A DNA stretch of 2,594 nucleotides from Escherichia coli (GTDB lineage: Bacteria; Pseudomonadota; Gammaproteobacteria; Enterobacterales; Enterobacteriaceae): the NCBI RefSeq assembly GCF_003334255.1, contig NZ_QOWU01000132.1; one strand, given 5' to 3'. The notes beneath the pieces were generated by a model. The model was not told the origin of the DNA, ran no database searches, and saw only the letters and a list, made by a program, of their open reading frames with translations. This document shows positions 2,456 to 2,530 of the stretch, one piece after another; positions within the stretch are counted from its first letter, which is position 1, and each line of letters opens with the position of its first letter. Made by a program: the position numbers and the translations under genes.

Positions 2456-2530
2456 CGCCATTAGCTCATCAGGAAAGAGCGCCAGCCTTCGAAGCTGGCT
2501 GCGCGGGGTTCAAGTCCCATAAGCGCTAAC
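2456..2530 (+). tRNA. tRNA-Arg-like (anticodon UCG) with non-pairing acceptor stem and weak T stem; possible pseudo-tRNA or 3'-disrupted tRNA
   Basis: Starts 7 nt after the first tRNA. Good D arm (GCTC-ATCAGGAAA-GAGC), good anticodon arm CCAGC-CTTCGAA-GCTGG (anticodon TCG at 2490-2492), T loop GGTTCAAGTCC. But the T stem CGGGG/CCCAT has two mismatches, the putative 5' acceptor strand CCGCCAT has no complementary 3' strand (AAGCGCT is found instead), and there is no CCA. The 3' boundary is uncertain. Confidence 0.5.

Follow-up and report, generated by a model that had tools for sequence, protein, structure and literature searches.

A probable IS186/IS421 insertion in the T arm of the argN tRNA gene of a lambdoid Escherichia coli prophage

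Genes for tRNAs are common integrase targets. In many lambdoid E. coli prophages, Stx phages included, the tRNA gene cluster ileZ-argN-argO lies downstream of the gene for the Q antiterminator, and in 933W the cluster stands directly upstream of stx2. A mutation-accumulation study of 59 new insertion sites found that IS186 is highly specific for the target 5'-GGGG(N6/N7)CCCC-3', a sequence of which the K-12 genome holds only about 54 copies, and that at a given site the element may lie in either orientation (PMC5009759). Insertions in both orientations at one position of the lon promoter were described in a separate report (PMC3045373). The element, whose name in the literature is IS186/IS421, is met below at a site carried on a prophage.

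The DNA analysed here, referred to as the window, is a stretch of 2594 bases from the late-control region of a lambdoid E. coli prophage. Up to and including the first tRNA gene, it was found to contain the following features, given with the evidence for each.

1..1029, + strand: DUF968/YdfU-family gene whose 5' end is lost at the window start (open reading frame and annotation)
1030..1392, + strand: gene for a RusA-family Holliday junction resolvase (open reading frame and annotation)
1407..2228, + strand: late antiterminator gene of the Q type (open reading frame; 'antitermination protein' in RefSeq on a 100% identical prophage)
2309..2335, + strand: intrinsic terminator that separates the Q gene from the tRNA cluster, made up of a hairpin and a T run (terminator scan)
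2372..2447, + strand: ileZ, intact, anticodon CAT (ARAGORN; Rfam, 72.5 bits; annotations)

In the RefSeq annotation of prophages 100% identical to this one the genes carry the same names, and the first tRNA, ileZ, which opens the ileZ-argN-argO cluster, is tRNA-Ile. ARAGORN labelled ileZ (2372-2447) as tRNA-Met from its CAT anticodon; in 933W and in RefSeq it is a tRNA-Ile reading AUA. The hairpin downstream of Q, AACCCGCCGCCGAGCGGGTTTTTTATT, probably serves as the late-operon terminator ahead of the tRNA genes; so it is in the annotation of 933W, where terminators are marked at the place equivalent to 2309..2335. Three Rfam matches in the region were set aside: a sub-threshold match to Trp_leader (2229-2335, 25.5 bits) was driven by this plain terminator hairpin, a Plastid-ycf2 match on the minus strand at ileZ was merely the antisense of that gene, and a match to YrlA was noise.

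Positions 1-2518 of the window are 100% identical to many complete E. coli genomes in which the tRNA-Ile and both tRNA-Arg genes are intact. One of these, the prophage of E. coli G1/2 (L004), has a 77-nt argN at positions 3226-3302, reading CCGCCATTAGCTCATCAGGAAAGAGCGCCAGCCTTCGAAGCTGGCTGCGCGGGGTTCAAGTCCCCGATGGCGGTCCA, with the acceptor complement ATGGCGG and an encoded CCA; its predicted fold is a perfect cloverleaf of -35 kcal/mol. The window matches this RefSeq-annotated tRNA-Arg at 64 of the 64 leading bases and diverges abruptly thereafter, the intact allele running on as ...GTCCCCGATGGCGGTCCA. The last matching base, C2518, is common to the tRNA and to the end of the element that follows and can be assigned to either; here it is counted as the first base of the element, so that the remnant is 2455-2517. 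Judged on this alignment, the resemblance of 2455-2517 to a tRNA is not a chance one, because its first 64 bases are those of the intact 77-nt gene. The position, after Q and ileZ, is that of the phage argN, and the argN of 933W aligns across the same span, at about 94% identity to these leading bases; Stx2 phages match the window over 2332-2517 at 94-96%, a match which spans their annotated ileZ and argN. Alignment to the 933W gene and to the intact chromosomal argN, a check proposed in an earlier, sequence-only reading of this DNA, placed the divergence point at 2518. That reading had put the tRNA at 2456-2530 and the break at about 2517. The break is where it was said to be, with 2517 the last tRNA base and foreign DNA from 2518, so that nothing beyond it is tRNA; the gene begins one base earlier, at 2455. 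The parts of the remnant and of the DNA joined to it are as follows; L003, L006, L009 and L010 are other insertions, described below.

2455..2517, + strand: 5' fragment of argN, bases 1-63 of 77 of the phage tRNA-Arg(UCG) (identity to the intact allele; partial Rfam match)
2455-2461, + strand: 5' strand of the acceptor stem, CCGCCAT (sequence)
2464-2480, + strand: D arm, GCUC/GAGC (sequence)
2482-2498, + strand: anticodon arm, CCAGC-CUUCGAA-GCUGG (sequence)
2489..2491, + strand: anticodon UCG (sequence; in the intact allele, which is identical here, ARAGORN reads tcg at position 35)
2504-2508, + strand: 5' strand of the T stem, CGGGG (sequence)
2509-2515, + strand: T loop, UUCAAGU (sequence)
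2505..2517, + strand: left half of the split target GGGG(TTCAAGT)CC[CC] (intact allele and the motif of PMC5009759)
2507-2517, + strand: left copy of the 11-bp target-site duplication GGTTCAAGTCC (duplications in L006, L009 and L010)
2518..2594, + strand: first 77 bases of IS186/IS421, which continues past the window end (exact match to the L003 element from its first base; 100% to the start of L009)
2518..2540, + strand: left terminal inverted repeat of IS186/IS421, 23 bp, CATAAGCGCTAACTTAAGGGTTG (the same 23 bases bound annotated elements)
2573..2594, + strand: start of the IS186/IS421 transposase reading frame, ATG AAT TAC TCT CAC GAT AAC (start of CDS WP_001615628.1, L003 3347)

The remnant retains everything from the acceptor 5' strand through the D arm, the anticodon arm and the variable region, and of the T arm it has the 5' strand of the stem, the loop and the two leading bases of the 3' strand. 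Its D arm and its anticodon arm, the latter with a 7-nt loop and the anticodon UCG, are canonical, as the sequence-only reading had described them. The rest of the molecule is defective in the ways which that reading had listed. In the canonical register CGGGG faces CCCAU, giving three of five pairs with G-A and C-U mismatched, because the last two 3' bases are IS sequence; the 7-nt T loop is thus not closed by a 5-bp stem. The acceptor strand CCGCCAU has no complement after the T loop, AAGCGCU (2521-2527) being able to form only two of the seven pairs of an acceptor helix. A search of the window after the T loop found neither a CCA nor an acceptor 3' strand. ARAGORN called the intact alleles of 933W and of E. 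coli G1/2 as tRNA-Arg(tcg); in the window it called ileZ and left the broken tRNA uncalled. The Rfam tRNA model matched 2461-2521 in part, over positions 7-64 of its 71, and scored 31.2 bits (E = 6e-4) where the gathering score is 29; a covariance-model fold with a proper 7-bp acceptor stem, which the sequence-only reading allowed that it might have missed, was not found. RNAfold returned a D hairpin, an anticodon hairpin and a distorted T hairpin, the acceptor helix being absent, and in folding energy the window version did not improve on shuffled sequences (z = -0.78), against z = -2.85 for the intact allele. A transcript of the remnant is without the acceptor 3' strand, the discriminator and the CCA. 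Because the acceptor helix and CCA are absent and only three of five T-stem pairs can form, the split gene would be expected to give no mature, chargeable tRNA.

From 2518 the window reads CATAAGCGCTAACTTAAGGGTTG and then TGGTATTACGCC... The same 23 bp, as an inverted repeat, bound elements of 1338-1339 bp at four other loci (L003, L006, L007 and L008), all annotated 'IS4-like element IS421 family transposase'; in the window the left end alone is present. The element of E. coli w264 (L003) is 1339 bp long. The transposase ATG lies 55 bases past the IS end, and the 22 bases of the reading frame that fall in the window match the annotated start exactly.

The junction falls in a sequence of the kind that IS186 is known to use. 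The T arm of the intact argN has a stem of G and C runs around the 7-nt loop TTCAAGT, which forms the core of the motif GGGGTTCAAGTCCCC; this is the sole GGGG(N6-7)CCCC within 6.3 kb of uninterrupted prophage, where 0.09 would be expected. The T arms of ileZ and argO contain no GGGG(N6/N7)CCCC, and there is none left in the window, the motif being split: the window retains GGGGTTCAAGTCC as far as the junction. The presence of this motif, as GGGG(N7)CCCC, in the T arm of argN would explain why IS186 struck there. In the likely sequence of events, a 1339-bp copy of IS186/IS421, an element of the IS4 family, would have inserted in the argN T arm, its transposase picking GGGG(N6/N7)CCCC where the T stem sets GGGG and CCCC around the 7-nt loop. 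Staggered cuts two bases within each G/C run, followed by repair, would produce the 11-bp duplication, and the last 14 bases of the gene, CCGATGGCGGTCCA, would be displaced by about 1.35 kb, past the window end. A simple insertion of this kind predicts a right junction of the form ...GCGCTTATG-GGTTCAAGTCC-CCGATGGCGGTCCA.

The window stops 77 bases into the element, and the right half for this molecule was taken from matching contigs, support which is strong, though indirect. Two IMG/VR contigs, L009 and L010, have the right junction in the window's orientation: the IS end, GGTTCAAGTCC, CCGATGGCGGTCCA and argO. L009 starts with CC, runs through the whole 1339-bp IS and the duplication into the 3' end of argN, with argO after that, and overlaps window positions 2516-2594 exactly; when the IS and one copy of the duplication are taken out of the window joined to L009, what is left is the intact argN, base for base. 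L010 starts within the right end of the IS; the 3013 bases that flank the element there are 100% identical to L004, the prophage with which the window, on the left side, also agrees at 100%. In the matching contigs the prophage is colinear on both sides of the 1339-bp IS, with the rest of argN and then argO beyond it. The insertion into this allele in this orientation was absent as one continuous record from 5,426 complete E. coli genomes, a phage collection, IMG/VR (probed with an orientation-specific junction), a metagenome collection and species-representative genomes.

Complete T-arm insertions with 10-11-bp duplications were found at four loci. In L006 (E. coli Z1323PEC0012) a slightly different argN allele has a 1339-bp IS at the same T-arm position in the opposite orientation, with the 11-bp duplication GGTTCAAGTCC followed by CCGATGGCGGTCCA and argO. 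In L007 (TUM9803) the IS occupies the same T-arm position in a paralogue, an Arg-tRNA with the anticodon UCU, and the duplication is GGTTCGAGTCC. An argN variant with GGGG(GCGGGT)CCCC is interrupted in nine genomes (L003, for example) by an IS in the window's orientation with the duplication GGGCGGGTCC, and in eight genomes (L008, for example) by an IS in the opposite orientation, again with GGGCGGGTCC. With the window counted, there have been at least five independent IS events at the phage tRNA T-arm position, in both orientations. One further IMG/VR record, L005 (IMGVR_UViG_2690316200_000011), carries the window's own argN allele with the IS in the opposite orientation; at about 2460-2500, on the minus strand, it reads IS, GG, N, and then a second ileZ-upstream region with the variant argN. 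L005 was rejected as the window's continuation, given the opposite orientation of its IS, its other prophage background and the N gap that comes next, and the join looks like the scaffolding of two prophage tRNA regions across an IS. At L007 2510-2572, RefSeq/PGAP carries a tRNA-Arg label on the 63-nt remnant of an IS-truncated tRNA-Arg(UCU), the 3' part of which lies past the 1339-bp IS.

The argN variant is itself an altered tRNA. It is widespread, occurring at L002 1726-1806 (phage vB_EcoS-640R1) and also in mEp460_ev081, L003 and L008; it keeps the acceptor stem, the D arm and a G/C-rich T arm, and its anticodon arm is swapped for the unrelated …GAGCAGACGACACGATAACAGGGTTGTTGGTGCGGGGGCGGGTCCCC…. 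Neither ARAGORN nor Rfam recognised this variant as a tRNA. It contains GGGG(N6)CCCC and has IS421 insertions in both orientations. The same prophages (L002 1819-1865; L003 4668-4712) have an argO cut short just past the anticodon, …CCTTCTAAGCA|GCTGTGGTTGC…, and in that lineage the tRNA cluster is therefore decaying by other rearrangements.

Taken together, these comparisons make it very probable that the window holds the left half of a simple IS186/IS421 transposition into the argN T arm, with 2455-2517 the 5' 63 bases of the gene. The possibility was considered that the IS is associated with a deletion or rearrangement, such that the far side of the element is not the rest of argN and the 3' part is missing from the genome, whether because two IS copies recombined or because a deletion arose next to the element. 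The window ends within the IS, and in L005 an IS at this site is followed by two bases, an N and an unrelated second ileZ region, loci of this sort being often unresolved or rearranged in assemblies. The L005 join, however, bears an N and looks like scaffolding, and the right junctions of L009 and L010, which have the same orientation, show the 11-bp duplication as expected, L010 with a flank 100% identical to the prophage which matches the window at 100%, so that such a loss is quite improbable; the simple insertion would continue GGTTCAAGTCCCCGATGGCGGTCCA. An artefact of assembly, by which a contig ran on falsely from argN into the sequence of a multi-copy IS while the real gene is intact and reads GTCCCCGATGG across the site, would fit the window's end exactly 77 bases into a repeat that has thousands of copies across E. 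coli genomes, a typical end for a short-read contig. Indeed, what the window shows is probably the end of a contig, not a piece cut from a finished genome; a 77-base stretch of IS is also the overlap expected where a k=77 de Bruijn contig meets a repeat. But the join coincides with base 1 of the inverted repeat and, within the IS186 motif, with the canonical spot that is also used in finished genomes, and contigs with the complementary right junction exist. An artefact is very unlikely indeed, because a chance misjoin would not reproduce the exact IS terminus and target position.

The sequence-only reading had itself proposed that this is a decayed pseudo-tRNA, or that the 3' part was replaced by recombination, tRNA 3' ends being integration targets, so that the break might mark a module boundary. 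As noted, tRNA genes in general attract integrases, and prophages of the mEp460 type, with their rearranged argN-like sequence and truncated argO, show that the cluster decays in some lineages. Decay by mutation is nevertheless at odds with the retained 63 bases, which have 0 substitutions before identity is lost abruptly at the IS terminus and which, like the 2.4 kb upstream, match at 100% prophages whose argN looks functional. A rearrangement of the DNA did remove the 3' part, so this much of the recombination proposal stands; the cause was DDE transposition, by all appearances. As to integration, the foreign DNA is an IS186/IS421 end, the adjacent gene is the IS transposase and no integrase was found, nor is there past the junction any complementary acceptor strand or att-type rebuilding of the tRNA 3' end. 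A module boundary is contradicted by the prophage itself, which past the 1339-bp IS continues colinearly with the rest of argN and argO. Mutational decay, or an integrase-replaced 3' end marking a phage module boundary, is accordingly so improbable as to be scarcely worth entertaining.

On the reading as a simple IS186/IS421 insertion, ileZ, lying upstream, would be unaffected, and the IS would move argO and the downstream late and lysis genes 1.35 kb further away from Q and the upstream promoters. The insertion seems to be recent, because there are 0 differences in 2518 bases from uninterrupted prophages. It costs such prophages one of three phage-supplied tRNAs and places a 1.3 kb IS between the late antiterminator and the genes downstream, and it could alter prophage inducibility. 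The T-arm site has the Q antiterminator on one side and the lysis and late genes on the other, and this raised the idea that the G4/C4 T arm of phage tRNA-Arg genes is a recurrent IS186 hot spot (at least five independent insertions, both orientations, three tRNA variants) at which insertions are favoured as a crippling or domestication of the prophage, as against a neutral accident; we think this unlikely. No paper on IS186 in argN, in tRNA genes or in their T arms was found in open-access text, so the regularity may be a small, unreported one; it is a direct consequence of the known target rule. Any T arm in which a GGGG/CCCC stem encloses a 6-7-nt loop is a built-in IS186 target, and truncated tRNA calls beside IS186/IS421 ends are to be read as split genes, not as pseudogenes. 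For this locus, one candidate "strange tRNA" is struck off the list, with its exact anatomy given; the matter is of little import, the feature being an ordinary, fully explained insertion of a known kind.

Compared with known systems, the locus is in most respects familiar. It shares its terminal repeat, element length and target motif with the IS186/IS421 insertions at the hot spots in the lon promoter, fimA and menC, and likewise the use of both orientations at one site and a 10-11-bp duplication in which the core is joined by two bases from each G/C run; those hot spots are promoters or protein-coding genes, whereas the site used here is a T arm, in a tRNA gene carried by a phage. With the argN of 933W, of other Stx2 phages and of lambdoid phages it shares its place downstream of Q and the terminator, 7-9 bases past ileZ, its anticodon and the acceptor strand CCGCCAT. 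Over the retained part, identity to Stx-phage argN is about 94-96%, and to the non-Stx E. coli prophage allele it is 100%. In 933W (L001 1626-1702) the gene is whole, while the window's locus holds only bases 1-63 of 77; the 933W T arm, GGGG(TTCGAGT)CCTC, is one base off the IS186 motif, and the window's non-Stx allele has a perfect GGGG(N7)CCCC. The resemblance to an integrase attB in a tRNA gene is that the tRNA is interrupted in its 3' third. In integrase events, however, the 3' end of the tRNA is rebuilt from the incoming element and an integrase gene lies adjacent, whereas here the 3' end would be merely displaced, the element is an IS with a DDE transposase, and the equivalent loci are flanked by a target-site duplication, not by att cores.
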